Part shown: piece after piece, positions 27,690 to 57,382 of the stretch
How the letters are laid out: each line of letters starts with the position of its first letter
How positions within the stretch are numbered: position 1 is the first letter of the stretch
Source: Gammaproteobacteria bacterium
GTDB lineage: Bacteria; Pseudomonadota; Gammaproteobacteria; Tethybacterales; Persebacteraceae
Direction of reading: 5' to 3'
Assembly: GCA_965221835.1 (NCBI GenBank)
Contig: OZ244916.1
Location: 329,947 to 393,946 of the forward strand
DNA length: 64,000 nt
Notes under the pieces: generated by a model
The model's database searches: none
What the model was told of the DNA's origin: nothing
What the model saw: the letters and a program-made list of their open reading frames with translations, nothing else
Translations under genes and position numbers: made by a program

Positions 27690-28045
27690 TAATCACCACC
27701 GGAAAATGCCCGCAAATTTCGGTTTTGCACGACTGTATTAATTTAAAATCGCCACCGGAAAAATGTTCGCAAATTTCGGTTTTGCACGACTATTAATTTA
27801 AAATCGCCACCGGAAAATGCCCGCAAATTTCGGTTTTGCGCGACTATTAATTTAAAATCGCCGCCGGAAAACGCCCGAAAATTTCGGTTTTGCGCGACTG
27901 TATTAATTTAAAATCGCCACCGAAAAATGCCCGCAAATTTCGGTTTTACACAACTGTATTAATTTAAAATCGCCGCCGGAAAATGCCTGCAAATTTTGCA
28001 CCTTTTGCGCGATTGTATTAATTTAAAAATTAATTTAAAAATTTA
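27690..28045. repeat. Intergenic tandem array, about 6 copies of a ~59-bp unit, decaying into a short AT-rich taattt/taaaaat microrepeat
   Basis: The unit aatcgccaccggaaaatgcccgcaaatttcggttttgcacgactgtattaatttaa repeats head to tail with point variants (gccacc/gccgcc, gcacgac/gcgcgac/acacaac). Confidence 0.7.
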
Positions 28046-36300: not shown

Positions 36301-36981
36301 TCAGACGATAACCGCTTTTTCCGTCATTGACCAGGGACCCCGTCCCGCCGAATTTTCGTACGCGACTTTTAAGAACGCGTTCATTCCAACTTCGGGTTCG
36401 GTAAACATCACCGTAAACCGCCCTCGCCCGATATAATCCATCGGATGAAAATCGCCGTCCGTCGGTTCTGTTCCTTGCGGCAAAACTGCAATTTGTCTTG
36501 CAACTTTCGTATTTCTCGGCAATGCAACACGATTTACGCCTTCGGTCGTCTGCATTGTCGTATCAAAAGTCAAAGCCATCGCCCGCCGGTCAACCAAAAC
36601 CAAAGTCGGTGCATCGGTCGGAACTTCGGCGGGTGTTCGTGTTGTTTTGTCTTCGTGAATAAACAAATGCAAATAATCGTCCGTTGTCAGCGTCACCATT
36701 CCATTTTTTATTGCCTGCCGTAGCGGCAAAACGAAAGTGTACGCCGCATCGTCCATTTCCCGCATTTCCCGTATTGCTTTCGGTCCGTGCGTGTCGGGGT
36801 CAATATAATTGTTATATGCCGTCTGAAAGGCGGAATTGAAATTAATCAAACTCGTCACCTGTTCAGCAGTCACACCGAGTCGGGTTGCATTTTCGCTTGG
36901 AACGCCGCCCGTGTCGGAGAGATATTGCACCATAGATAATAATTCCGCCCAATGTTCGGCGTATCGTTGTGATAAACGCAT
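36301..36981 (-). CDS. Hypothetical cytoplasmic protein (226 aa), divergent neighbour of the giant adhesin gene; contains the only canonical DUS in the window
   Basis: Good SD (aaggag) before MRLSQRY. No signal peptide or known domain. ATGCCGTCTGAA occurs at 36816-36827 inside the CDS. Confidence 0.5.
   Translation of the reverse strand: MRLSQRYAEHWAELLSMVQYLSDTGGVPSENATRLGVTAEQVTSLINFNSAFQTAYNNYIDPDTHGPKAIREMREMDDAAYTFVLPLRQAIKNGMVTLTTDDYLHLFIHEDKTTRTPAEVPTDAPTLVLVDRRAMALTFDTTMQTTEGVNRVALPRNTKVARQIAVLPQGTEPTDGDFHPMDYIGRGRFTVMFTEPEVGMNAFLKVAYENSAGRGPWSMTEKAVIV
36816..36827 (+). other. Neisseria 12-mer DNA uptake sequence (AT-DUS, ATGCCGTCTGAA)
   Basis: Exact match read directly from the sequence. 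No further exact copies or other DUS dialects were spotted by eye elsewhere in the window. Confidence 0.6.
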
Positions 36982-37084
36982 GATTTTTCTCCTTTTGTGT
37001 TGATTAATAAAATAAGCGTTGCAGCGATTAAAACACGATTCTGCACAAATTGCGAAAGTTTTTACATTAGCATGCCATTTTGCT

Positions 37085-37255
37085 ACACAAAAGTTTGCAT
37101 TTACAGTGTAAAGACATGAAATAACAGTGTAAATAATTGCAGTACGGCATAGGAATGTGCATGAACAGTGTTGCAATTTGCAAGAACAGTGTAGTAATTT
37201 GCAGTGTCAGTATTGCAATTTGCATGTGCTGTGTAGCAAAATGCTCGATCAATGT
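37085..37255. promoter_or_regulatory. AT-rich control region upstream of the giant gene with about 6 iteron-like ~22-bp direct repeats (consensus nACAGTGTwrynAATTTGCA)
   Basis: The repeats are tacagtgtaaagacatg, aacagtgtaaataattgcagt, gaacagtgttgcaatttgcaag, aacagtgtagtaatttgcagtg, tcagtattgcaatttgcatgtg and ctgtgtagcaaaatgc. The region 36985-37575 is far more AT-rich than its surroundings. A near-consensus ttgaca-N15-tataat lies at 37545-37569. Confidence 0.4.
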
Positions 37256-37576
37256 AAGAATTTGCCGAATTAATGCGGGAATTCATAGATTTATGCGTTT
37301 CAGACGCCGAATTACTGCGGAAAATAAAAGTGCAGGCGATGAACGGGTTTTGTATGAGAGTTTTGCCGTCCTATCCGCTGACATTTCTGCCCCGCCTGCA
37401 ACGGATTCGTAAAAATGATGCCGTCCGGATATATTATATTCAATCAAGTTCCACTTGCGACACGAGAATCAGCAAGATGACGAGGAAAATAAAGCCGATA
37501 TACATCCCTTTCATTTGGCGGAGATTATAGCATTAAATATCGTTGACAAGTCAAACTATCTGCTATAATTCCGCCC

Positions 37577-40500
37577 ATGAGATTTTTCCGGCGAATTTTG
37601 GCGATTCTTTTCGCCCTTTGCGGGGCGGAGGCGGCATTATCGCAAGAAATTACGATTAGTTTGGATGTTGCGGCAAAACAGATAACGGTTTTATCGCCGA
37701 GACCGACAAGGCAATTTAGATATTTTTGGCGGTGTGCGGAAACTAACCCTATCACAGGCGATGAAATCGAACTTGAATTTCTTCAGCGGGATACAAACCT
37801 ACCAAATTCTCAATTTTTAACTTTCGCCGAAATTGAAGAACATCTTAACGATAATATCAAATGCGATCATATTTCTTTGGCTTATGTGAGAAATGCTAAT
37901 GAAGTAATACGCAGCAATACTCTCCGAATTGTGGGCGTGCGGCGAGAAGGAAATCCGCCGCATGTCACCGTCAACATTGACCATATCGGCGATGGATATA
38001 CCGAAGGCGATGTTTATAGTTTCAATGTGGTATACACGGATTTATTTGGAGTCGTGCAAACCGTACGCAACGATGAAGAAGAAAGATTTAATGAGGTTTT
38101 TGGAAATGTGCAGTGGTTTAAGACGGGAATTAGAAGCAAGGATAACTTGATTGCATTTCCGTCATCTTCGTCTACTGATAATCTTTTTGTAAATCCGCCC
38201 TCTCCGTTTCCAGAAAGAAGATTTATTTTTTTACCAGTACGGGATATTGAATGTACGGGCGAATCTTGCGAAACTGAACTTATGCCGACATTGGGCGATG
38301 CCATAGCATATCAACCGATTGAAAGCCCGCCTCCACCACAATATCCTCATACCTATACACTATCGCACAGTCATTTTTCCGATTCGTACTACACCAGAGA
38401 TAACGGAGAAATAATATATTTAGACCATTTCGCCGTTCGGATAACAGACAAATGGGAACACACAGAACAACCATTTTCGGGGCTAACGCAATATGGAGTT
38501 TCTTGGGGATTTATTCCGAGAAACGAACCGACCGAAGTTTCTCAACTGGAACTTTATAGGAGTATTGACCCGTTCCAATTTTCCGGAACTCCGGCAGAAG
38601 AACCAGTTTCTTTCGGCGAATTTGCATTCGGTAGCGATAAAGAAAAACTTTACAACTTATTCAGCATTTCCGGAGACCTCAACAATGGCATTAAGCAAAG
38701 TACCAGATTTATATGGCAACACCGGATTAACGGCGGCGAATGGATAACTACGGAAGATGAAAGGATTGTCAGAGGAACTTATTTTACAAGTCCCGATCAT
38801 TTTGTCGGGGCGAAAATAGGGGACGAAATTCAAATTCGTGGCATATTGGATGTTGAAGACGGATGGGGATTGCGAAACTATTTATTTTCGCCCACATTAT
38901 CGCACACCGATATGCCGCCGACGGGAGATATGCAATTCATAGAGACCGGATTGCATGCAGAAGCGACGATAACCACCTCGCTGGATGAAATAGAAGACCC
39001 GGACGGAGAAATTGATGTACTTTCCTATCGTTGGCAAGCGGGAAATGGTACGGTTTTTACCGATGTACTTTTTCAAGAATATGATGAGGCAAACCGGAGA
39101 TTATTTGCCGACAGTATTAGAAATGTTCCGTACATTTTGGACGCATCCGTTTTCAATCAAGAAGGCAACAGCGGAATGCGAGTAATTGCGGAATTGACCG
39201 ACTCATTTTTTGGGCAGGCAACTATAACTTCCGGTTTCTTTCTGGTGAATCCCCCGACCGAAGGAACCGTTTCCATAAACGGCAATCCGTTATTTTCGGA
39301 CGGCGAAATATACACATTAACGAATGTTGACGAATTAACGGACGGCAACGGAATCGGCAGATTTAGTTATTCATGGTATGTAAGCATAGACGGCGGCAAT
39401 AGTTATGACAGAAGAGGGGCTTTTGGTACAACTTTCACATTAAAAGCATCTCACATTGCAGAGGCAAATGCAGATACGCCCGTATTGTTGCGTGCCGATG
39501 TGGTACATACCGATGCGGACAGATACACACAAACGCTTGTGGCTTTTTTTGAACAAAATTTTCCGACACAAGGCGAAATCACAATTGACGGCAATCCGAT
39601 GTTTGCGGCGGGCGAAATATACACCGCAATCACCGCCGAATTATCGGACAGCAACGAAATCGGCGGATTTACTTATCAATGGCTTGTGAGTTTTGATGAC
39701 GGCAATAACTATAATGAAATTGCGGGCGAGACGGGAGAAACTTACACGGCGGACACGGCGGATTTTGCGGGGGCGAATCCGAACACGCCGATATTTTTGG
39801 GCGTTTCGGCGGTGCATACCGATTTGGACGGCTACGCACAAACGATTACGGCATTTTTGGAACAGGATCTTCCGACACAAGGCGATATTGTTTTGAATGC
39901 TATTGCGAATCCTTTGGTGCTTGGCGAAGTCAAGTTTTCGGTGAATGTTGACGCATTGACGGACGGCAACGACATCGGCGATTTTGCATATCAATGGTTT
40001 GCGAGTATTGCCCGTGGTGCAGATTACAATCCGATTTCGGCGGCGACCGACAGATCGTACATATTGGACCGGTCGGATTTTGCGGGGGCGGCGGCGAATG
40101 AACCGGTGCGAATTTCGGTTTCGGTTGTGCATACCGATTTGGCGGGATATGAACAATCGTTCGGAGATTTTTTCGTGCAGAATCCTCGGACAGAAGGCGA
40201 GATAACAATTGACGGCAATCCGATGTTTGCGGACGGCGAAATATACACCGCAATCACTGCCGCATTATCGGACAGAAACGGAATCGGCGATTTTACTTAT
40301 CAATGGGTTATAAGTTTTGACGGCGGCAACAACTATAACACTAACGGAATTTTGGGAATCGATTCTACTTACACTTTGCGGGCGGAAGATATTGCGAATG
40401 CCGATGAAAACATTCCCGCCCTGCTGGGTGTTGCGGCGGTGCATACCGATTTGGACGGAAACACACAAACGTTAACGGCATCTTTTTTGCAAGATATTGC

Positions 40501-43500
40501 CGGCACAGGCAGCGTTTCAATTTCGGGTGCGAATTCATTTGCGGCGGGCGAAAAATATACAGCGATAACAAACATTGCGGATGCAAACGGAATCAGCGTT
40601 TTCGTTTATTCATGGCATGCAAGTACGGACGGCGGAAATAACTATACGCAAATAACAGATGCGAATTCGGAATCGTACACGCTTGCATTGTCAGATTTTG
40701 CCGGTGCAACTTCGGCGAATCCGGTGCATCTTTTGCTTTCAGTTGTGCATACCGACATGGGCGGATTTTCGGAGTTTTATTTGGCAACGCTAATTCATTC
40801 CGACACGGCGGCGGGTGGAAGTTTGGGAATTGAAATTCAAAACGGCGTAATTGCGGAAGATGCGATTGTGGAATTAAATACGGCGGGAATTTCGGACATA
40901 AACGGCGGGGGAATCGTTTCGCATTCGTGGCATTTGGATAACGGTGCGGCGATTGTCGGCGAAACTTCGGCGACTTATATTTTGTCATCGGCGAATTTAA
41001 CTTTGTCGGAAATTCGCAACGGCGTTTTACATTCGGAAGTTTTATATCGGGATTCGTTCGGTTATGAAACAAGATTTTCCATCACGCTATTCGGCGAAGG
41101 CGATGATGAAGAATACGATCCGGACAATCCGAATGAGTTGGATTCTATGGGAACGGGAACGGTTGCGATTTCGGGAACGATTTCGTTTGCGGCGAATGAA
41201 AGATATACGGCGGACATTTCGCAAATCGCTCCGAATGACGCAAACGGCGAAGGAGATTTCGCATATTCATGGCATACGAGTACGGACGGCGGAACGAATT
41301 ACAATTTAATATCGGGTGCGAATTCGGAATCGTACACGCTTGCATTGTCGGATTTTTCCGGTGCAACTTCGGCGAATCCGGTGCATCTTTTGCTTTCGGT
41401 TGTGCATACCGATTTCGGCGGATTTGATCAAAGTTATCTGGCGACTTTGATTCATTCCGACACGGCGGCGGGCGGAAGTTTGGGAATCGGAATTCAAAGC
41501 GGCGTAATTGCAGAAGGTGCGATTGTGGAATTAAACACGGCGGGAATTTCGGACATAAACGGCGGCGGAATCATTTCGCATTCGTGGCATTTGGATAACG
41601 GTGCGGCGATTGTCGGTGCAACGGCGGCGACTTATATTTTGTCATCGGCGAATTTAACTTTGTCGGAAATTCGCAACGGCGTTTTACATTCGGAAGTTTT
41701 ATATCGGGACGATTTCGGTTATGAAACGAGATTTTCCATCACGCTATTCGGCGAAGGCGATGATGAAGAATACGATCCGGACAATCCGAATGAGTTGGAT
41801 TCTTTGGGAACGGGAACGGTTGCGATTTCGGGAACGATTTCGTTTGCGGCGAATGAAAAATATACGGCGGACATTTCGGACATCGCTCCGAATGATGCAA
41901 ACGGCAAAGGGACTTTTACATATTCATGGCATACGAGTACGGACGGCGGAAATAACTATACGCAAATCACGGGGGCGACATTGGAGTTGTATACGCTTGC
42001 ATTGTCGGATTTTGCGGGTGCGAATGCGAATGCGGAAGTGCATTTGCGAGTTTCGGTTGTGCATACCGATTTCGGCGGATTTGATCAAAGTTATCTGGCG
42101 ACTTTAATTCATTCCGACACAGCGGCGGGTGGAAGTTTGGGAATTGGCATTCGGGACGGAATCATCGCCGAAGATGCGGTTGTGGAATTAGACACGGCGG
42201 GAATTTCGGACATAAACGGCGGGGGAATCGTTTCGCATTCGTGGCATTTGGATAACGGTGCGGCGATTGTCGGTGCGACTGCGGCGACTTATACATTGCA
42301 AGCGGCGAATTTAACTTTGTCGGAAATTCGCAACGGCGTTTTACATTCGGAAGTTTTGTATCGGGATTCGTTCGGCTATGAAACAAGATTTTCCATCACG
42401 CTATTCGGCGAAGGCGATGATGAAGAATACGATCCGAACAATCCGAATGAGTTGGATTCTTTGGGCACGGGAACGGTTGCGATTTCGGGGACGATTTCGT
42501 TTGCGGCGAATGAAAGATATACGGCGGACATTTCGGACATCGCTCCGAATGACGCAAACGGCAAAGGAGATTTCGCATATTCATGGCATACGAGTACGGA
42601 CGGCGGAACGAATTACGATTTAATTTCGGGGGCGACATTGGAGTTGTATACGCTTGCGTTGTCGGATTTCGCCGGTGCGAATGCGAATGCGGAAGTGCAT
42701 TTGCGAGTTTCGGTTGTGCATACCGATTTCGGCGGATTTGATCAAAGTTATCTGGCAACTTTGATTCATTCCGACACGGCGGCGGGCGGAAGTTTGGGAA
42801 TTGAAATTCAAAGCGGCGTAATTGCCGAAGATGCGATTGTGGAATTAGACACGGCGGCGATTTCGGACATAAACGGCGGCGGAATCGTTTCGCATTCATG
42901 GCATTTGGATAACGGTGCGGCGATTGTCGGCGCAACGGCGGCGACTTATATTTTGTCATCGGCGAATTTAACTTTGTCGGAAATTCGCAATGGCGTTTTA
43001 CATTCGGAAGTTTTATATCGGGATTCGTTCGGTTATGAAACGAGATTTTCCATCACACTATTCGGCGAAGGCGATGATTCCGTCTCGCCGAATCCCGATG
43101 ATCCGAATCGTCCCGGCACGACGACAAATCCGGTTGACCCCGGCGACAATCCGGGCGGCGAAGATCCGGACAATCCGGGAAACATTTTCGGCACAGGCAG
43201 CGTTTCAATTTCGGGTGCGAATTCATTTGCGGCGGGTGAGAAATATACAGCGATAACGAACATTGCGGATGCAAACAGAATCGGTACGGTTTCATATTCA
43301 TGGCAAGCGAGTACGGACGGCGGAACGAATTACAATTTAATAACGGATGCGAATTCGGAATCGTACACGCTTGCGTTGTCAGATTTTTCCGGTGCAACTT
43401 CGGCAAATCCGGTGCATCTTTTGCTTTCAGTTGTGCATACCGACATGGGCGGATTTTCGGAGTTTTATCTGGCAACTTTGATTCATTCCGACACAGCGGC

Positions 43501-46500
43501 GGGCGGAAGTTTGGGAATTGAAATTCAAAGCGGCGTAATTGCGGAAGGTGCGGTTGTGGAATTAGACACGGCGGGAATTTCGGACATAAACGGCGGGGGA
43601 ATCGTTTCGCATTCGTGGCATTTGGATAACGGTGCGGCGATTGTCGGCGAAACTTCGGCGACTTATATTTTGTCATCGGCGAATTTAACTTTATCGGAAA
43701 TTCGCAACGGCGTTTTACATTCGGAAGTTTTATATCGGGATTCGTTCGGTTATGAAACAAGATTTTCCATCACGCTATTCGGCGAAGGCGATGATGAAGA
43801 ATACGATCCGGACAATCCGAATGAGTTGGATTCTTTGGGCACGGGAACGGTTGCGATTTCGGGAACGATTTCGTTTGCGGCGAATGAAAAATATACGGCG
43901 GACATTTCGGACATCGCTCCGAATGATGCAAACGGCAAAGGGACTTTTACATATTCATGGCACACGAGTACGGACGGCGGAACGAATTACAATTTAATAT
44001 CGGATGCGAATTCGGAATCGTACACGCTTGCATTGTCGGATTTTGCGGGTGCGAATGCGAATGCGGAAGTGCATTTGCGAGTTTCGGTTGTGCATACCGA
44101 TTTCGGCGGATTTGATCAAAGTTATCTGGCAACTTTGATTCATTCCGACACAGCGGCGGGCGGAAGTTTGGGAATTGAAATTCAAAGCGGCGTAATTGCC
44201 GAAGATGCGATTGTGGAATTAGACACGGCGGGAATTTCGGACATAAACGGCGGGGGAATCGTTTCGCATTCGTGGCATTTGGATAACGGTGCGGCGATTG
44301 CCGGCGAAACTTCGGCGACTTATACTTTGCAAGCGGCGAATTTAACTTTGTCGGAAATTCGCAATGGCGTTTTACATTCGGAAGTTTTGTATCGGGATGA
44401 TTTCGGTTATGAAACAAGATTTTCCATCACACTATTCGGCGAAGGCGATGACGAAGAATACGATCCGGACAATCCGAATGAGTTGGATTCTATGGGAACG
44501 GGAACGGTTGCGATTTCGGGGACGATTTCGTTTGCGGCGAATGAAAAATATACGGCGGACATTTCGGACATCGCTCCGAATGATGCAAACGGCAAAGGGA
44601 CTTTTACATATTCATGGCATGCGAGTACGGACGGCGGAACGAATTACGATTTAATTTCGGGGGCGACATTGGAGTTGTATACGCTTGCGTTGTCGGATTT
44701 TGCCGGTGCGAATGCGAATGCGGAAGTGCATTTGCGAGTTTCGGTTGTGCATACCGATTTCGGCGGATTTGATCAAAGTTATCTGGCGACTTTGATTCAT
44801 TCGGATACGGCGGCGGGCGGAAGTTTGGGAATCGGAATTCGGGACGGAATCATCGCCGAAGATGCGGTTGTGGAATTAGACACGGCGGGAATTTCGGACA
44901 TAAACGGCGGGGGAATCGTTTCGCATTCATGGCATTTGGATAACGGTGCGGCGATTGTCGGCGAAACTTCGGCGACTTATATTTTGTCATCGGCGAATTT
45001 AACTTTGTCGGAAATTCGCAACGGCGTTTTACATTCGGAAGTTTTATATCGGGATTCGTTCGGTTATGAAACGAGATTTTCCATCACACTATTCGGCGAA
45101 GGCGATGATTCCGTCTCGCCGAATCCCGATGATCCGAATCGTCCCGGCACGACGACAAATCCGGTTGACCCCGGCGACAATCCGGGCGGCGAAGATCCGG
45201 ATAATCCGGGAAACATTTTCGGCACAGGCAGCGTTTCAATTTCGGGTGCGAATTCATTTGCGGCGGGTGAGAAATATACAGCGATAACAAACATTGCGGA
45301 TGCAAACAGAATCGGTACGGTTTCATATTCATGGCAAGCGAGTACGGACGGCGGAACGAATTACAATTTAATAACGGATGCGAATTCGGAATCGTACACG
45401 CTTTCGCTGGCGGATTTTGCCGGTGCAACTTCGGCAAATCCGGTGCATCTTTTGCTTTCAGTTGTGCATACCGACATGGGCGGATTTTCGGAGTTTTATC
45501 TGGCAACTTTGATTCATTCCGACACGGCGGCGGGCGGAAGTTTGGGAATTGAAATTCAAAATGGCGTAATTGCGGAAGATGCGATTGTGGAATTAGACAC
45601 TGCCGGAGTTTCGGACATAAACGGCGGGGGAATCGTTTCGCATTCGTGGCATTTGGATAACGGTGCGGCGATTGTCGGGGCGGATGCGGCGACTTATACA
45701 TTGCAAGCGGCGAATTTAACTTTGTCGGAAATTCGCAACGGCGTTTTACATTCGGAAGTTTTATATCGGGATTCGTTCGGTTATGAAACAAGATTTTCCA
45801 TCACGCTATTCGGCGAAGGCGATGATGAAGAATACGATCCGAACAATCCGAATGAGTTGGATTCTATCGGCACGGGAACGGTGGCGATTTCGGGAACGAT
45901 TTCGTTTGCGGCGAATGAAAAATACACGGCGGACATTTCGGACATCGCTCCGAATGATGCAAACGGCGAAGGAGATTTCGCATATTCATGGCATGCGAGT
46001 ACGGACGGCGGAACGAATTACGATTTAATTTCGGGGGCGACATTGGAGTTGTATACGCTTGCGTTGTCGGATTTTGCCGGTGCGAATGCGAATGCGGAAG
46101 TGCATTTGCGAGTTTCGGTTGTGCATACCGATTTCGGCGGATTTGATCAAAGTTATCTGGCAACTTTGATTCATTCCGACACGGCGGCGGGCGGAAGTTT
46201 GGGAATTGTCGCCGCCGGTTTGATGGCGGGCGATTTGGTGACGGCGGATGCGGCGGGATTGACGGACGCAAACGGGGCGTTGACAATTTCATATCGCTGG
46301 CAAACGGGCGAACGAAATACGCCGGAAAGTTTTGCGGATCTTGTCGGCGAAACGGAAGCGGTTTATACAATTTATGCGGATGATTATGATTCCGATTCGC
46401 GAGATTCGTTGCGGCTGATTGCAAGAACGGCGGATCCGTTCGGCGGCGAGACGCAAATTACGAGTGCGATATTGCCGATCAATCGCGAAACCGAAGGGCG

Positions 46501-48538
46501 AATTTCGTTGGAGTTGGTCGGCGGAGAAATTGTTGCGGGGGCGACGATACGATTGCGGACGGATGCGGTATCGGATGAAAACGGCGGCGGTTTTGAAAAA
46601 TATTATTGGTTTATAAACGATCTTTTGTTGATGGAAGAAAATGACGATTTTCTTGTCGTGCGGTCGGATGATTTGCGCGATATTGCGGCGGGCGGATTGC
46701 GGGCGGAGGCGAAGTATGTTGACGGAATCGGATTTACCGTTCGGTTGTCGGCGAGATTGATTGCTGCCGGTATTGTCGCACCGTCGCCGGAAGAAATCGC
46801 GAATTGGTCGGTCGTTATAGAAACCGAAGGCGTTGCGTTCGGCGAGGATTTGGCACGGGCGAATTTGATTGGCGCGGAACAATCGGATTATTACGAAGTT
46901 TTCTATCGCTGGCGAACAGGCGTTGGCATCGCTTTTGCCGATGAAAGGAATGTCGGCGGCGTTGGCAACTATCATCAGTTGGAAGCGGCGAATTTTAATC
47001 CGCAAGATCATTTGCGGGCGATTGCCGAAGTGGAGTTATTGTCCGGCGCTTTTGTCACGCTTACTTCGGCGCCGGTGCAAATTGATTATCCGTCTATCGG
47101 TGCGGTGCGAATTGTCGCCGGCGAGTTGCTGGCGCCGGGGGTTGTGGTCAGTGCGGATATTTCTGATGTGCGGGATGCGAATGGCGGCATAAACGTTGTT
47201 TCTGAAAGATGGTTGTATGCAGATACGCCTGTTGCGATGGCGCGCAGTTATACCTTAACCGAAGAAGCGGTGCATGCCGGAAAAGTTTTTTATGAGGCGA
47301 TTTTTGCGGACGCTGCCGGTTTTCGTACATCGTTGCGGGCGGAAGCAAATGTGGGAGGCGAAGTATCATCCGAAAAAGCCGAAGCAATAATTGGTGCGGT
47401 CAATGCAGCGGCGATTGACGGATTGTGGAACGCGTTGGAGGGGCATTTGGATAGCGAAGCCGGATGGCGTGCGAATGGTGCGCCGATTGAAGATCCATCG
47501 CAAATCGCCGCGGCATTGTCGCGCCGTGATGAAAATTCTTTGCATCCCGATTCGCCGTTTGCGTTGGATTCGTTTGCGTTGAAAGAATCGGGCGGCGAGG
47601 CGGGTGAAGAATGGTCGTGGTGGGCGCACGGGTCGCGGAGTAGATTGAAAGGAAAGCCGATTATCGACGGCGAGGAAGTAAAATATCACGGCGATTATGC
47701 ATCTTTTCATGCGGGAATGGATCGGCAAATCAGCGACACGATGCGCGCCGGACTCGCTTTCGGTGCGGACGATGCGGATTTGGATGTGGAATGGCGCAAA
47801 GGCGTAGACGGACGGTTGCGGCAGAATATTCGTTCGCTGATTCCATATACGGAATGGCGTCCGGATGATTTGACGAATGTGCGCATATTGGCGGGCTACG
47901 GCGAAGGCGATATTTATTTGGCGGAACACGATAACGCATCCAGGGCATCCGCCCGCCGGACATTGTTCGGCATTCGCGCCGCCCGCCGCAAAGATTTGGC
48001 GGACAATTTTGATATTACTTTTTCGGGCGGATTTGACAAAACGCGTCTGCAAACGGGCGCGATTGATTTGCCCGGATTGCAAGATGATTTGGACGCCCGC
48101 ACGAAAGAAACACATGCGCGAGTGAGAGGTGGACATATTTCATTGTTGCCGGCAAAAGGATCATTGCACAAAGAAATAAGTTTGCGTTGGCGTTCGCAAT
48201 CAGTAGCGGGCGACAGAGATAGCGTTTTTGATTTCGGCATCGGATTTAATGCGACATTGCCGGAATATTTTCTTTCGTTCGGGGCGGACGGCGAACGGCA
48301 ACTAACCGACTCGGCACACGAACGAAATCGTTTCGGCGTTTATATCGCCTACGGTGCCGGACGATTTGCGCATATTTTGGAAACCCGTTATGACAACGAA
48401 ATAGCGTTACCACAAAATCGCTGGCAAATTAACACCGTTTCAGAATGGGGCGTCAGCGAACTTCTCACCGGCGTTTATGTGGAACATAACGGCAACGCAG
48501 ATCTTAGAATCGGCTGGGAATCTAATCTTCTGTTTTAA
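37577..48538 (+). CDS. Giant (3653 aa) secreted repeat protein: signal peptide, unique N-terminal domain, diverged ~110-aa modules, about 9 near-identical ~219/238-aa tandem repeats, and a ~330-aa C-terminal autotransporter-like beta-domain ending in Phe
   Basis: One uninterrupted 10.96 kb ORF. Signal peptide MRFFRRILAILFALCGAEA-ALS. Repeat blocks (...GTGTVAISGTISFAANEKYTADISDIAPNDANGKG.F.YSWH.STDGG.NY...VHLRVSVVHTDFGGFDQSYLATLIHSDTAAGGSLGIEIQSGVIAEDAIVELDTAGISDINGGGIVSHSWHLDNGAAIVG..SATY.L..ANLTLSEIRNGVLHSEVLYRDSFGYETRFSITLFGEGDDEEYDPDNPNELDS) are identical except at scattered residues. The C-terminus (...WSWWAHGSRSRLKG... to ...IGWESNLLF) resembles the start and end of type Va autotransporter barrels. 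Confidence 0.8.
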   Translation: MRFFRRILAILFALCGAEAALSQEITISLDVAAKQITVLSPRPTRQFRYFWRCAETNPITGDEIELEFLQRDTNLPNSQFLTFAEIEEHLNDNIKCDHISLAYVRNANEVIRSNTLRIVGVRREGNPPHVTVNIDHIGDGYTEGDVYSFNVVYTDLFGVVQTVRNDEEERFNEVFGNVQWFKTGIRSKDNLIAFPSSSSTDNLFVNPPSPFPERRFIFLPVRDIECTGESCETELMPTLGDAIAYQPIESPPPPQYPHTYTLSHSHFSDSYYTRDNGEIIYLDHFAVRITDKWEHTEQPFSGLTQYGVSWGFIPRNEPTEVSQLELYRSIDPFQFSGTPAEEPVSFGEFAFGSDKEKLYNLFSISGDLNNGIKQSTRFIWQHRINGGEWITTEDERIVRGTYFTSPDHFVGAKIGDEIQIRGILDVEDGWGLRNYLFSPTLSHTDMPPTGDMQFIETGLHAEATITTSLDEIEDPDGEIDVLSYRWQAGNGTVFTDVLFQEYDEANRRLFADSIRNVPYILDASVFNQEGNSGMRVIAELTDSFFGQATITSGFFLVNPPTEGTVSINGNPLFSDGEIYTLTNVDELTDGNGIGRFSYSWYVSIDGGNSYDRRGAFGTTFTLKASHIAEANADTPVLLRADVVHTDADRYTQTLVAFFEQNFPTQGEITIDGNPMFAAGEIYTAITAELSDSNEIGGFTYQWLVSFDDGNNYNEIAGETGETYTADTADFAGANPNTPIFLGVSAVHTDLDGYAQTITAFLEQDLPTQGDIVLNAIANPLVLGEVKFSVNVDALTDGNDIGDFAYQWFASIARGADYNPISAATDRSYILDRSDFAGAAANEPVRISVSVVHTDLAGYEQSFGDFFVQNPRTEGEITIDGNPMFADGEIYTAITAALSDRNGIGDFTYQWVISFDGGNNYNTNGILGIDSTYTLRAEDIANADENIPALLGVAAVHTDLDGNTQTLTASFLQDIAGTGSVSISGANSFAAGEKYTAITNIADANGISVFVYSWHASTDGGNNYTQITDANSESYTLALSDFAGATSANPVHLLLSVVHTDMGGFSEFYLATLIHSDTAAGGSLGIEIQNGVIAEDAIVELNTAGISDINGGGIVSHSWHLDNGAAIVGETSATYILSSANLTLSEIRNGVLHSEVLYRDSFGYETRFSITLFGEGDDEEYDPDNPNELDSMGTGTVAISGTISFAANERYTADISQIAPNDANGEGDFAYSWHTSTDGGTNYNLISGANSESYTLALSDFSGATSANPVHLLLSVVHTDFGGFDQSYLATLIHSDTAAGGSLGIGIQSGVIAEGAIVELNTAGISDINGGGIISHSWHLDNGAAIVGATAATYILSSANLTLSEIRNGVLHSEVLYRDDFGYETRFSITLFGEGDDEEYDPDNPNELDSLGTGTVAISGTISFAANEKYTADISDIAPNDANGKGTFTYSWHTSTDGGNNYTQITGATLELYTLALSDFAGANANAEVHLRVSVVHTDFGGFDQSYLATLIHSDTAAGGSLGIGIRDGIIAEDAVVELDTAGISDINGGGIVSHSWHLDNGAAIVGATAATYTLQAANLTLSEIRNGVLHSEVLYRDSFGYETRFSITLFGEGDDEEYDPNNPNELDSLGTGTVAISGTISFAANERYTADISDIAPNDANGKGDFAYSWHTSTDGGTNYDLISGATLELYTLALSDFAGANANAEVHLRVSVVHTDFGGFDQSYLATLIHSDTAAGGSLGIEIQSGVIAEDAIVELDTAAISDINGGGIVSHSWHLDNGAAIVGATAATYILSSANLTLSEIRNGVLHSEVLYRDSFGYETRFSITLFGEGDDSVSPNPDDPNRPGTTTNPVDPGDNPGGEDPDNPGNIFGTGSVSISGANSFAAGEKYTAITNIADANRIGTVSYSWQASTDGGTNYNLITDANSESYTLALSDFSGATSANPVHLLLSVVHTDMGGFSEFYLATLIHSDTAAGGSLGIEIQSGVIAEGAVVELDTAGISDINGGGIVSHSWHLDNGAAIVGETSATYILSSANLTLSEIRNGVLHSEVLYRDSFGYETRFSITLFGEGDDEEYDPDNPNELDSLGTGTVAISGTISFAANEKYTADISDIAPNDANGKGTFTYSWHTSTDGGTNYNLISDANSESYTLALSDFAGANANAEVHLRVSVVHTDFGGFDQSYLATLIHSDTAAGGSLGIEIQSGVIAEDAIVELDTAGISDINGGGIVSHSWHLDNGAAIAGETSATYTLQAANLTLSEIRNGVLHSEVLYRDDFGYETRFSITLFGEGDDEEYDPDNPNELDSMGTGTVAISGTISFAANEKYTADISDIAPNDANGKGTFTYSWHASTDGGTNYDLISGATLELYTLALSDFAGANANAEVHLRVSVVHTDFGGFDQSYLATLIHSDTAAGGSLGIGIRDGIIAEDAVVELDTAGISDINGGGIVSHSWHLDNGAAIVGETSATYILSSANLTLSEIRNGVLHSEVLYRDSFGYETRFSITLFGEGDDSVSPNPDDPNRPGTTTNPVDPGDNPGGEDPDNPGNIFGTGSVSISGANSFAAGEKYTAITNIADANRIGTVSYSWQASTDGGTNYNLITDANSESYTLSLADFAGATSANPVHLLLSVVHTDMGGFSEFYLATLIHSDTAAGGSLGIEIQNGVIAEDAIVELDTAGVSDINGGGIVSHSWHLDNGAAIVGADAATYTLQAANLTLSEIRNGVLHSEVLYRDSFGYETRFSITLFGEGDDEEYDPNNPNELDSIGTGTVAISGTISFAANEKYTADISDIAPNDANGEGDFAYSWHASTDGGTNYDLISGATLELYTLALSDFAGANANAEVHLRVSVVHTDFGGFDQSYLATLIHSDTAAGGSLGIVAAGLMAGDLVTADAAGLTDANGALTISYRWQTGERNTPESFADLVGETEAVYTIYADDYDSDSRDSLRLIARTADPFGGETQITSAILPINRETEGRISLELVGGEIVAGATIRLRTDAVSDENGGGFEKYYWFINDLLLMEENDDFLVVRSDDLRDIAAGGLRAEAKYVDGIGFTVRLSARLIAAGIVAPSPEEIANWSVVIETEGVAFGEDLARANLIGAEQSDYYEVFYRWRTGVGIAFADERNVGGVGNYHQLEAANFNPQDHLRAIAEVELLSGAFVTLTSAPVQIDYPSIGAVRIVAGELLAPGVVVSADISDVRDANGGINVVSERWLYADTPVAMARSYTLTEEAVHAGKVFYEAIFADAAGFRTSLRAEANVGGEVSSEKAEAIIGAVNAAAIDGLWNALEGHLDSEAGWRANGAPIEDPSQIAAALSRRDENSLHPDSPFALDSFALKESGGEAGEEWSWWAHGSRSRLKGKPIIDGEEVKYHGDYASFHAGMDRQISDTMRAGLAFGADDADLDVEWRKGVDGRLRQNIRSLIPYTEWRPDDLTNVRILAGYGEGDIYLAEHDNASRASARRTLFGIRAARRKDLADNFDITFSGGFDKTRLQTGAIDLPGLQDDLDARTKETHARVRGGHISLLPAKGSLHKEISLRWRSQSVAGDRDSVFDFGIGFNATLPEYFLSFGADGERQLTDSAHERNRFGVYIAYGAGRFAHILETRYDNEIALPQNRWQINTVSEWGVSELLTGVYVEHNGNADLRIGWESNLLF
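40500..46210 (+). repeat. Intragenic tandem array: about 9 copies of a 657-bp unit (two copies 714-717 bp with an added Pro/Asp-rich linker), >95% identical, arranged as a ~2031-bp higher-order repeat
   Basis: The antisense and alternate-frame ORFs in the supplied track recur with identical sequence at fixed spacing (41719/42376/43750/44407; 41064/42378/43752/45783; 43033..43263 = 45064..45294; 43053..43760 = 45084..45791; 43300..43521 = 45331..45552). Older diverged ~330-bp repeats precede the array at 39230-40500. Confidence 0.85.
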
Positions 48539-55271: not shown

Positions 55272-55284
55272 ACGCGGCAAGTTT

Positions 55285-55975
55285 TTAATCGGAATTCGGA
55301 AAATTCCGATTTTCATCTGAATTTAGAAAATTACGATTTTCACCGTAATTCGGAAAACTCCGATTTTCACCAGAATGCCATTTTATGAACATCGCCGCCC
55401 GCCGCCGTTTCCATCCTCGCAAAACGCGGAAATTAAATAGGCGCGTTTTTCATCATAATTTGGAAAATTCCGATTTTTATCTGAATTTAGAAAATTACAA
55501 TTTTTATCGCAATTCGGAAAACTCCGATTTTCATCTGAATTTAGAAAATTACGATTTTCACCGTAATTCGTAAAATTCCGATTTTCACCAGAACGCTATT
55601 TTATAAACACCGCCCGCCGCCGCCGTTTCCATCCTCGCAAACGCGGAAATTAAATAGGCGCGTTTTTCATCGGAATTCGGAAAATTCCGTTTTTCATCCG
55701 AATTCGGAAAATTAAGATTTTTATCAGAACGCTATTTTATGAACTCCGCCCGCCGCCCGTTTCCATCTTTGCGAACGCGGAAATGAAATAGGCGCGTTTT
55801 TTATCATAATTCAGAAAATTCCGTTTTTCATCATAATTCGGAAAATTCAAATTTTCACCGGAATTCGGAAAACTCCGATTTTTATCAGAACGCTATTTAT
55901 GAACGCCGCCCGTTTCCATCTTCGCAAAACGCGGAAATGGAAAAGATGATTTTTTTTATAAAACAGTGATTCGGT
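55285..55975. repeat. Complex intergenic tandem repeat array: about 14 copies of a 26-28-bp hairpin-capable unit (AATTCGGAAAAyTCCGATTTTCAyC) interleaved with 4 copies of a ~80-bp unit
   Basis: gaattcggaaaattccgattttcatc, tgaatttagaaaattacgattttcacc and gtaattcggaaaactccgattttcacc alternate with ...gccattttatgaacatcgccgcccgccgccgtttccatcctcgcaaaacgcggaaattaaataggcgcgtttttcat. Each cggaa-aa-ttccg core can form a 5-bp stem. Confidence 0.7.
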
Positions 55976-56020: not shown

Positions 56021-57382
56021 ATGACTAAAACGACAAACGAAACTGCTGAATATCAATGTTTGGATGCGGCGCATTATATGCATCCTTTTACGGACGGGCG
56101 CGCGTTGGGGGCGGGGGCGCGCATTATCGTGCGCGGCGAAGGCGCATATTTGTGGGACAGCGATGGCGGCAAACTGCTGGACGGAATGTCCGGTTTGTGG
56201 TGCGTCAATATGGGTTATGGGCGCGAGGAAATTGTCGCCGCGGTTGCCGCACAAATGCGCGAGTTGCCTTATTACAACAGTTTTTTTCAGTGCGCGACTC
56301 CGCCCGCGATTGAGTTGGCGAAAGAGTTGGCGGACATTGCACCGCCGGGATTCAATCATGTCTTTTTTGTCGGTTCCGGTTCCGAGGCGAACGATACTAT
56401 CGTGCGAATGATTCGCCGCTATTGGGCGTTGCGCGGTCGTCCGCAAAAAACGGTTATCGTTTCGCGTCATAACGCTTATCACGGCAGCACGATGGCGGGC
56501 GCGTCTTTGGGCGGAATGGCGGCGATGCACGCGCAAGGCGGATTGCCGATTCCCGGCATTGTGCATACCGCGCAACCTTATTGGTTTGGCGAAGGACGCG
56601 ATTTGTCGCCGGACGAATTCGGACGCCGTGCGGCGAATGCGCTGGCAGAAACAATTGACGAAATCGGCGCGGAAAATGTCGCGGCGTTTATCGGCGAACC
56701 GGTGCAAGGGGCGGGCGGCGTGATTGTGCCGCCCGATTCATATTGGGGAGCGGTGCAGGAAATTTGCGACGAACGCGATGTGCCGATTGTCGCCGACGAA
56801 GTGATTTGCGGTTTCGGGCGTTTGGGGACTTGGTTTGGGTCGGAAGTTTTCGGGATTCGTCCGAAACTGATGCCGATAGCGAAAGGAATGACTTCGGGCT
56901 ATTTGCCGATGGGCGGCGTGTTGGTGCATGACGATATTGCCGACACCATTATTGACGAATGCGGCGAATTCGCACACGGATTTACATACAGCGGTCATCC
57001 GGCTTGTGCGGCGGCGGCGCTTGCAAATTTGCGTCTAATGCACGAAGAAAATATTATACAAAAAACGCGCGAAGTTGCTGCACCGTATTTGCAACAAGAA
57101 TGGGCGCGACTTGCCGATCATCCGATTGTCGGCGAAGCGCGCGGAATCGGAATGGTTGCGGCGCTGGAAATTGTCGCCGATAAAGCAACCGGCGCGCGAT
57201 TTGCGGGACAATCGGCGGGCGCAAAATGCCGCGATTTTTGCGTCGCCGCCGGACTCGTCATGCGCGCAGTCGGCGATACGATGATCGTCGCACCGCCGTT
57301 AGTTATCACCCGCGAACAAACAGACGAACTCATCCAAAAAGCAACTCTCGCATTAGACAAAACCGCCGCCGCATTGCGATAG
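56021..57382 (+). CDS. Class III (omega-amine) pyridoxal-phosphate aminotransferase, SpuC / beta-alanine–pyruvate transaminase-like
   Basis: ...LWCVNMGYGREEI..., ...VFFVGSGSEANDT..., FIGEPVQGAGGVIVPP, DEVICGFGRLG, ...MPIAKGMTSGYLPMGGV... (PLP-lysine region). A tattataat -10 ends 6 nt before the ATG. Confidence 0.8.
   Translation: MTKTTNETAEYQCLDAAHYMHPFTDGRALGAGARIIVRGEGAYLWDSDGGKLLDGMSGLWCVNMGYGREEIVAAVAAQMRELPYYNSFFQCATPPAIELAKELADIAPPGFNHVFFVGSGSEANDTIVRMIRRYWALRGRPQKTVIVSRHNAYHGSTMAGASLGGMAAMHAQGGLPIPGIVHTAQPYWFGEGRDLSPDEFGRRAANALAETIDEIGAENVAAFIGEPVQGAGGVIVPPDSYWGAVQEICDERDVPIVADEVICGFGRLGTWFGSEVFGIRPKLMPIAKGMTSGYLPMGGVLVHDDIADTIIDECGEFAHGFTYSGHPACAAAALANLRLMHEENIIQKTREVAAPYLQQEWARLADHPIVGEARGIGMVAALEIVADKATGARFAGQSAGAKCRDFCVAAGLVMRAVGDTMIVAPPLVITREQTDELIQKATLALDKTAAALR

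Follow-up and report, generated by a model that had tools for sequence, protein, structure and literature searches.

The subject of this study is a tandem array of 21-bp repeats in a 64,000-nucleotide stretch of a gammaproteobacterial chromosome (contig OZ244916.1, positions 329,947 to 393,946; hereafter the window), where it lies between two divergent genes, one encoding a 226-amino-acid (aa) protein of an unannotated family and the other a giant adhesin. We find that the pairing of such an array with a gene of this family spans at least two phyla, Gammaproteobacteria and Bacteroidota, and that the period is kept while the sequence of the units turns over rapidly. As read from the sequences, the array is most likely an upstream element of the 226-aa gene and not a control region of the adhesin. 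We favor, at a probability of roughly 0.55, a model in which the array is a phased platform of multiple protein-binding sites on one face of the helix that sets transcription of the 226-aa gene and evolves by slippage and gene conversion.

The two open reading frames (ORFs) are separated by an intergenic stretch of 595 bp (36981-37577), in and around which the following features lie.

36301-36981, minus strand: 226-aa gene, ATG at 36981
37577-48538, plus strand: 3653-aa adhesin gene, ATG at 37577
37087-37275, minus strand (read on the strand of the 226-aa gene): the array, 8-9 head-to-tail 21-bp units with no spacers
37255-37275 (weak), 37234-37254, 37213-37233, 37192-37212 and 37171-37191, minus strand: array units
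37150-37170, 37129-37149, 37108-37128 and 37087-37107, minus strand: array units, continued
37076-37089: promoter-proximal arm of a perfect 14-bp inverted repeat, CATTTTGCTACACA
37230-37243: distal arm of the perfect 14-bp inverted repeat, TGTGTAGCAAAATG
37276-37523: intergenic DNA outside the repeats, 96.6% identical in strain L006

On the strand of the 226-aa gene the units have the consensus cACtGtaCtTGCAaaTTgCaA, the reverse complement of the ACAGTGT..AATTTGCA motif reported in a preliminary description of this DNA, and the best five of them occupy 37150-37254; cores of the ACAGTGT type begin at 37104, 37124, 37165, 37186, 37207, 37228 and 37249. That description had placed six repeats of about 22 bp here, and the repeats are indeed where it put them, although the unit count is 8-9 and the period 21. 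Tandem Repeats Finder (TRF) called a period-21 array at 37150-37239 (4.3 copies, 73% matches), a separate repeat search found copies spaced 21-21-21, and the autocorrelation over the best 200 nt peaks at 0.575 at lag 21, against 0.371±0.015 (maximum 0.435) in 300 dinucleotide shuffles. The proposal of a spacing of two helical turns thus stands, the non-random 21-bp period being compatible with repeated binding of protein on the same face of the DNA. So does the description of the region as AT-rich, with a GC content of 0.335-0.36 at 37000-37300 compared with 0.50-0.58 in the neighboring housekeeping genes (the adhesin gene lies at 0.39-0.48). The possibility that the motif merely belongs to a dispersed repeat family is not borne out within the 64 kb, where it is confined to this locus: five of the seven matches to the 18-nt motif at up to three mismatches fall in the array, and the remaining two are three-mismatch matches. 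The 14-bp inverted repeat brackets the core of the array, and its proximal arm, an inverted copy of part of the distal unit, occupies the position expected for a -35 element.

The relatives of the 226-aa gene carry arrays of their own. A word-indexed search with the protein returned nine relatives, whose loci were fetched; upstream of each the dominant periodicity is 21 bp or a multiple of it. Written in rows of 21 nt back from the ATG, these arrays hold their register for 120-260 bp, and 40-115 nt separate their ends from the start codon. Across the family the best upstream periodicity is 21 bp, or 42/63 bp, at 15 of 16 distinct loci (the window, also seen in L001 and L006; L002; L004; L005; L007-L013; L017-L019; and L021), and at these 15 the arrays are located 40-380 bp upstream of the start codon. 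Arrays number about 6-13 units across the family; L017, a distant member, has 3.8 copies, and L021 is cut inside its array, leaving two units 21 bp apart followed by TGcTATAAT. When TRF was run on all 220 kb fetched, period-21 arrays appeared only upstream of family genes, with the exception of one 2.8-copy case, and arrays located elsewhere had other periods. Three more 21-bp arrays are visible as 7-aa repeats in the over-extended N-termini of P0047, P0106 and P0143, just before the true start, and a 280-aa relative with an over-extended N-terminus rich in R, G and A suggests that a high-GC lineage may have the pairing too. Viral contigs held no relatives of the family, and a metagenome scan yielded a single, truncated locus. 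Literature searches for 21-bp promoter repeats or for this protein family gave nothing relevant, and the pairing is apparently undescribed.

The units themselves differ from locus to locus, and the composition of the arrays ranges from 22% to 55% GC.

L004 and L005: repeat unit CTTTGCATGCCGACTGTTTGG
L007: repeat unit GTTGTGTACGCCGTCCACTTC
L008: repeat unit GCAACGAAATAGTTCCGTTGC
L012: repeat unit TTCCTTTTGCAAAGNNATTTN
L002 and L010: units built around TTTAACAGTGTTG
L013: unit CGTCGACGTACGTTGAGAAGT, 9 copies, -235 to -43 relative to the ATG
L018: unit ACTACTTACAAAAGAAATATT, about 8 copies, -242 to -85 relative to the ATG
L019: units TTTCATGGTAATGGAGAATAT and TTCCAAGAAAATGAAGAGTAT, 7-8 copies, -247 to -95 relative to the ATG

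The surroundings of the family genes are equally varied, and no homologous neighbors that would mark a conserved partner were found beside them. A related 2.12-Mb genome has two paralogues, one between genes for an outer-membrane protein and an ABC transporter and the second flanked by ankyrin and NUDIX genes; additional copies are found beside restriction-modification genes and rpoD, beside phosphate-transport genes and on a TARA contig, and a gammaproteobacterial metagenome-assembled genome (MAG) from a sea cave has three paralogues. A member with 23% identity is found in a 2.39-Mb Bacteroidota-type genome with genes for SusD and a TonB receptor as neighbors, and each of the three paralogues in that genome carries its own 21-bp array.

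These contexts bear directly on the preliminary description, which took the array for operator sites of a regulator of the giant adhesin gene. The adhesin is absent from the other family loci examined, nearly all of which carry their own 21-bp array and whose neighbors include outer-membrane protein, ABC-transporter, ankyrin, restriction-modification, rpoD, SusD/TonB and tRNA genes. Because arrays accompany relatives of the 226-aa gene at 14 other loci, all without an adhesin, a link of the array to the adhesin is not supported. Its end lies about 105 nt from the ATG of the 226-aa gene compared with about 300 nt from that of the adhesin, the roughly 300 bp in between are well-conserved non-repeat DNA, and the adhesin has a promoter-like pair and a separate palindrome of its own. 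That the array sits in a shared divergent intergenic region, that strains L001 and L006 keep the adhesin arrangement and that divergent promoters can share regulatory sites leave the operator model with some standing, and the array may have an additional influence on the divergent adhesin promoter; as an account of what the array is for, we consider the model very unlikely. The annotation is corrected to the effect that the array is not to be used for inferring regulation of the giant adhesin.

The array evolves far faster than its flanks, probably because slippage and gene conversion homogenize or replace its units. In strain L006 the flanks are 96.6% and 93.8% identical to those of the window, and the array, of equal length, only 66.7%. 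The L006 array consists of nine nearly perfect copies of GCAAAT(T/C)(A/T)CTACACTGTTCAT, a unit that is essentially one of the window's units, amplified, and the cores GCAAAT and ACACTGT are kept between the two arrays. Strain L001, which diverges from the window locus by 1.4% overall, has the same array with 2 substitutions. Loci L004 and L005, whose surroundings are unlike, code for an identical protein; the segment common to them, at 92% identity, comprises exactly the upstream intergenic region, the coding sequence (CDS) and about 60 bp, and they differ in copy number (10.4 in L004 and 12.4 in L005). Unit sequences also differ among paralogues of the same genome (L007, L008 and L009; L013, L018 and L019). 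Slippage together with gene conversion would preserve unit length, homogenize or replace unit sequence and alter copy number, so that unit and array length kept through such turnover are the behavior expected of concerted evolution under a constraint on the period.

The arrays also have a consistent relation to candidate promoters. In the following features coordinates are those of the window unless given relative to the ATG.

37059-37072, minus strand: candidate -10 of the 226-aa gene, TGcTAATGT then TAAAAA, assigned by inference from the position in relatives
-83 to -78: -10-like TATAAT in L002 and L010
-83 to -78: -10-like TAAAAT in L004 and L005
-51 to -46: -10-like TGnTTTAAT in L007-L009
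about -66 to -61: -10-like TGcTATAAT in L021
37006-37045, minus strand: leader hairpin, TGCAG..CTGCA, then the run TTATTTTATT
36989-36993, minus strand: Shine-Dalgarno sequence AGGAG of the 226-aa gene
37524-37532, minus strand: extended -10-like TGcTATAAT facing the array and the 226-aa gene, conserved in L006

The -10-like elements stand directly downstream of the arrays at conserved positions, and no convincing -35 was found at the loci that have them, the array filling that space. The same-face reading is drawn from this layout, because the period equals two helical turns and the array abuts the -10 and covers the -35 and the zone upstream of it. The array, its period, its linkage across the family, its hypervariability and its non-coding nature are direct observations; protein binding, the direction in which transcription would respond and the nature of the binder are inferred. 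We envision a scenario in which the array and a gene of about 225 aa coding for a helical-FN3 protein form a compact two-part module that recurs across bacteria, with protein oligomerizing along the same-face sites and thereby setting transcription of the downstream gene. At most gammaproteobacterial loci the space from the -10 to the Shine-Dalgarno sequence contains a GC-rich hairpin and, after it, a U-run; at L002, L004, L005, L010, L011 and L012 these are stronger and more terminator-like than in the window. The hairpin and U-run look like an attenuator and would, on that likeness, add a second control point.

The protein family offers a further view of the module. A hidden Markov model search of 1.84 billion representatives returned 306 clusters (50% identity) at E ≤ 0.001, mostly full-length at 220-226 aa, and the 226-aa protein (P0001) and 85 relatives had no match in Pfam, NCBIfam, PHROGs, PADLOC or PDB sequence profiles. 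An AlphaFold2 model of P0001 with the 85 relatives in the alignment has a predicted local distance difference test score (pLDDT) of 96.6 and consists of a helical bundle (helices 5-21, 30-34, 39-60, 67-92 and 100-105), a linker and a seven-stranded FN3 domain (125-226). Foldseek searches of PDB and BFVD matched the FN3 part alone, with nothing for the N-domain. The two halves evolve at different rates, paralogue pairs being 93% identical in the FN3 half and 64% in the N-domain (L008/L009) or 83% and 39% (P0121/P0160). Residues 30-60 read like a helix-turn-helix (ATRLGVTAEQVT), with R34 conserved in 82%, and the window and L006 proteins are 100% identical in the best tblastn segment, which takes in all 226 residues.

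Several observations weigh against the model we favor. The candidate -10 of the window (TAAAAA or TAATGT) is weak, and the element at 37524-37532, if active, could place the array within a leader of about 535 nt; all the promoter assignments are readings of sequence alone. L014-L016, a single locus from a sponge-associated MAG of the White Sea, has no array. Across the arrays no common motif pointing to one shared host factor was established. P0001 itself is acidic, with an isoelectric point (pI) of 5.2, compared with a mean of 7.3 for the family, and a net charge of -5 on its N-domain, and neither its AlphaFold2 model nor Foldseek revealed a recognizable DNA-binding fold.

In a related alternative, the binder of each private array would be the helical-FN3 protein encoded beside it, which would use its fast-evolving N-domain to contact the repeats as DNA or, should they be transcribed, as RNA. 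By analogy with Rep-iteron and ParR-parC complexes, the 21-nt period would then be the footprint of one protomer or dimer, in the service of autoregulation or of a dedicated nucleoprotein complex. The gene is the sole cis element that travels with each array, unit sequences are specific to the paralogue, and in paralogue pairs array and N-domain diverge together, with the FN3 half remaining alike. Beside the -10 of the window and of L006 the core of the unit recurs in inverted form, as in the operators of iteron rep genes, and residues 30-60, with the conserved R34, resemble a helix-turn-helix. Set against these are the acidity of P0001 and a family N-domain mean net charge of -0.9, structural matches to FN3 and to no DNA- or RNA-binding fold, and the fact that the window and L006 proteins match completely when their arrays are 67% identical, albeit with the GCAAAT and ACACTGT cores retained; the similarity of the paralogues in the 3' half could, moreover, be a mere gene-conversion tract. 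We hold self-recognition as a tentative alternative, and put forward more tentatively still the idea that protein and private array constitute a self-contained two-part element that spreads horizontally across phyla, the N-domain recognizing its own array.

The array could instead be transcribed, either in a long 5' leader or as a separate repeat non-coding RNA that ends at the hairpin and U-run and acts as a sponge or scaffold. The extended -10 at 37524-37532 points into it, terminator-like hairpins with U-runs stand between array and Shine-Dalgarno sequence at most gammaproteobacterial loci, and the L013 array ends 43 nt before the ATG, where there is little room for a promoter. Folding argues otherwise. 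Ten of the 15 arrays reach folding z-scores of -2 or below on either strand, a symmetry that indicates dyad symmetry in the DNA and not a strand-specific RNA, and the window array is unstructured (z = 0.14); in addition, Rfam gave no match, -10 elements of consensus type follow the arrays on their downstream side, and an exact period of 21 is most simply explained by the helical repeat of B-DNA. We therefore judge a transcribed array unlikely. A purely physical role, in which in-phase bends curve the upstream DNA or the array is a variable spacer that keeps helical phase, would account for a conserved period with a sequence free to vary and for a summed twist of 710-725 degrees per unit, about two turns. 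By a wedge model, 8 of the 15 arrays are more curved than their own shuffles and 7 are predicted to be straight, including the nearly perfect ones at L004, L005 and L018 and, by a narrow margin, that of the window; these predictions are approximate. With composition running from 22% to 55% GC as well, we regard a sequence-independent element as distinctly improbable. Least likely of all is that the array is a neutral minisatellite, a hitch-hiking selfish repeat or the iterons of an integrated element's origin. Fast turnover and homogenization are typical of minisatellites, the spacing equals that of plasmid iterons, and intergenic arrays are also present elsewhere in this genome (55283-55887 and 27691-28028). 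However, period, position and a length of about 6-13 units are kept down to 23% protein identity and in two phyla, which argues for selection, and the locus has no Rep-like winged-helix protein or DnaA box and lies in a chromosomal housekeeping context without integrase or plasmid genes. The array at 55283-55887, where periodicity is stronger than anywhere else in the window (0.62 at lag 27), comprises three blocks of 27-bp units (TTTTCATCGGAATTCGGAAAATTCCGA) alternating with a repeated segment of about 100 bp (…CGCCGCCCGCCGCCGTTTCCATCCTCGCAAAACGCGGAAATTAAATAGGCGCG…) and takes up the intergenic space ahead of an ORF whose start is near 56022; that at 27691-28028, also intergenic, repeats units of 56/110 bp in tandem, with 6 and 3 copies and 87-88% matches.

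Other identities for the array were considered and dropped. It is non-coding: a heptad peptide (21 nt being seven codons) is rejected as a feature of the family by stops in all six frames at L002, L009, L010 and L011, although a single open frame does run through some arrays, into which gene callers have extended ORFs. Nor does the 85-aa ORF at 37273-37530 look like a hidden regulator, given that its ATG is lost in L006 and its substitutions are nearly all non-synonymous. Rfam 15, searched at the gathering threshold for six loci and at an E-value threshold for the window, returned only tRNAs and two sub-threshold chance matches. The contiguous units, without spacers, are not those of a CRISPR array. 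A DNA uptake sequence (DUS) of the Neisseria type, GCCGTCTGAA, occurs once in the 64 kb (at 36818), and 6 of 100 shuffles hold at least one, so this is not a DUS-rich genome. An iteron-type replication origin was rejected because the window locus has no winged-helix Rep, DnaA box or mobile-element genes: no match to the DnaA box TTATCCACA with up to one mismatch lies in 36985-37576, and the region is AT-rich, yet no 13-mer of a DNA-unwinding element (DUE) was identified in it. The setting is ordinary chromosome on a contig of 2.0 Mb, where the locus is flanked by genes for leucyl-tRNA synthetase, a CLC channel and RecG and, in the other direction, by those for FAD oxidoreductase and sarcosine oxidase (Pfam), with no integrase or plasmid genes. 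A parC-like partition centromere was dismissed likewise, as Pfam found no ParA/ParM NTPase and no ribbon-helix-helix (RHH) or helix-turn-helix (HTH) binder among the neighbors.

The adhesin has a signal peptide (MRFFRRILAILFALCGAEA) that begins at the ATG at 37577, tandem Ig-like repeats, a C-terminus ending in F and weak Pfam matches only. It contains many near-identical blocks of about 330 aa, and its length is probably variable by repeat recombination because of them; it has 3653 aa in the window and 3669 aa in L001 (an ENA assembly of the 1.4%-divergent strain).

37543-37569, plus strand: adhesin promoter-like pair, TTGACA at 37543-37548, a 15-nt spacer and TATAAT at 37564-37569

This near-consensus pair, which the preliminary description had noted close to the ATG, is exact, with 7 nt between the TATAAT and the ATG; it is absent from a consensus promoter scan because the scan covered spacers of 16-18 nt. 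The pair is conserved in L006, and in L001 the -10 is TACAAT. There is no purine-rich Shine-Dalgarno sequence upstream of the adhesin start, and an in-frame TGA at 37544 makes an upstream start impossible. A leaderless or near-leaderless adhesin mRNA is plausible on this arrangement. The -35 hexamer forms half of the palindrome TTGACAAGTCAA (37543-37554, 5-2-5), which could be an operator for a dimeric regulator, apart from the 21-bp array. An exact 13-nt direct repeat, ATAATTCCGCCCA, is present at 36939-36951 and 37565-37577, once within the CDS of the 226-aa gene (WAELL codons, on the other strand) and once across the -10 and ATG of the adhesin; both copies are found in L006, and the estimated chance expectation of such a duplication in 751 bp is roughly 0.004-0.01.

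Several observations concern the wider neighborhoods of the family. Small predicted lipoproteins (signal peptide and Cys) are encoded directly downstream at L013 (4686-5138), L018 (4774-5187) and L011 (5794-6117), and BLASTP finds no homology among the three. In one subclade a block of about 70 bp, GCCAAATCATGTTTCGCCG.CG.GCAAGAACGGCG.A.A.AGGCGGTTC…, with a hairpin, adjoins the arrays upstream (L002 5680-5750; L004 5573-5643; L010 4731-4801) and is absent from the window. Clusters of the short palindrome ATTCC(C/T)G-N-C(G/A)GGAAT, which resemble neisserial dRS3/NIME repeats, lie upstream of arrays in related genomes (L007 1400-1530; L008 1960-2075; L009 1880-2150; L011 4180-4600). Genes of restriction-modification or defense type, including those for an EcoRI-like methylase, GmrSD, AIPR, Eco57I and a reverse transcriptase, are near several family loci (L010 2509-4658; L004 2819-4150; L019 6546-7955; L015 1-59), which suggests that the module of array and gene tends to sit in variable islands. 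L006 is a 6.1-kb contig deposited as 'MAG: Spirochaetia bacterium' and is probably mis-binned, the other relatives being labeled Gammaproteobacteria.

Phased repeat arrays are familiar from plasmid origins, from partition sites and from a small number of promoters that undergo phase variation. A fixed period combined with free sequence and linkage to one family makes these arrays a natural experiment on helical phasing, cooperative binding and concerted evolution in bacterial promoters, and the pairing offers a way into what a widespread unannotated protein family (about 225 aa, about 306 clusters) does.

Among surface proteins, the autotransporter Ag43 (flu) is controlled by OxyR and Dam and is likewise a large protein with a complex upstream region; here the intergenic region has one GATC (37247) and the array is not linked to the adhesin. 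Contingency loci with tandem repeats at promoters, such as the 7-bp repeats of hmw1A/hmw2A in H. influenzae and the TAAA tract of nadA in N. meningitidis, resemble the array in being tandem repeats whose copy number varies among strains, presumably by slippage, and in lying upstream of a promoter, here a candidate one. Between our closest relatives copy number varies in one comparison (L004 and L005) and not in the other (the window and L006, equal in length and different in sequence). In contrast to those loci, the array accompanies a single protein family in more than one phylum, its variation is chiefly in sequence and less in length, and because its units are 21 bp, gain or loss of one keeps helical phase. 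The centromeres of type II and type Ib partition systems, parC with ParR in R1 and sopC of F, are also phased repeats (period 11 bp in parC and 43 bp in sopC) that overlap the promoter of the adjacent operon, and they are bound cooperatively by a protein encoded next to them. They differ in that our loci have no ParA/ParM ATPase, a protein that is neither RHH nor HTH-ParB, and a period of 21 bp.

Iteron origins are recognized by a winged-helix Rep initiator encoded next to them (PMC4980987, Table 1) and by the DnaA boxes and AT-rich DUE that accompany the iterons (PMC4980987, Fig. 1). The helical bundle and FN3 domain described here differ from the WH1-WH2 fold of Rep, the window locus has no DnaA boxes and lies in a chromosomal housekeeping context, and several paralogous modules occur per genome. 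Nevertheless, the iterons of theta-replicating plasmids with autoregulated rep genes (pPS10, R6K, RK2, F and P1) resemble the array in being direct repeats of about 20 bp spaced by two helical turns, next to a gene of about 230 aa with an inverted partial copy at its promoter, and in having repeat sequences specific to each element. If the helical-FN3 proteins do recognize their own arrays, the module would represent a new class of chromosomal iteron-like nucleoprotein complex, unrelated to Rep, ParR or ParB, with possible roles as an autoregulated variable factor in host-associated bacteria or in a function linked to defense or to genomic islands.

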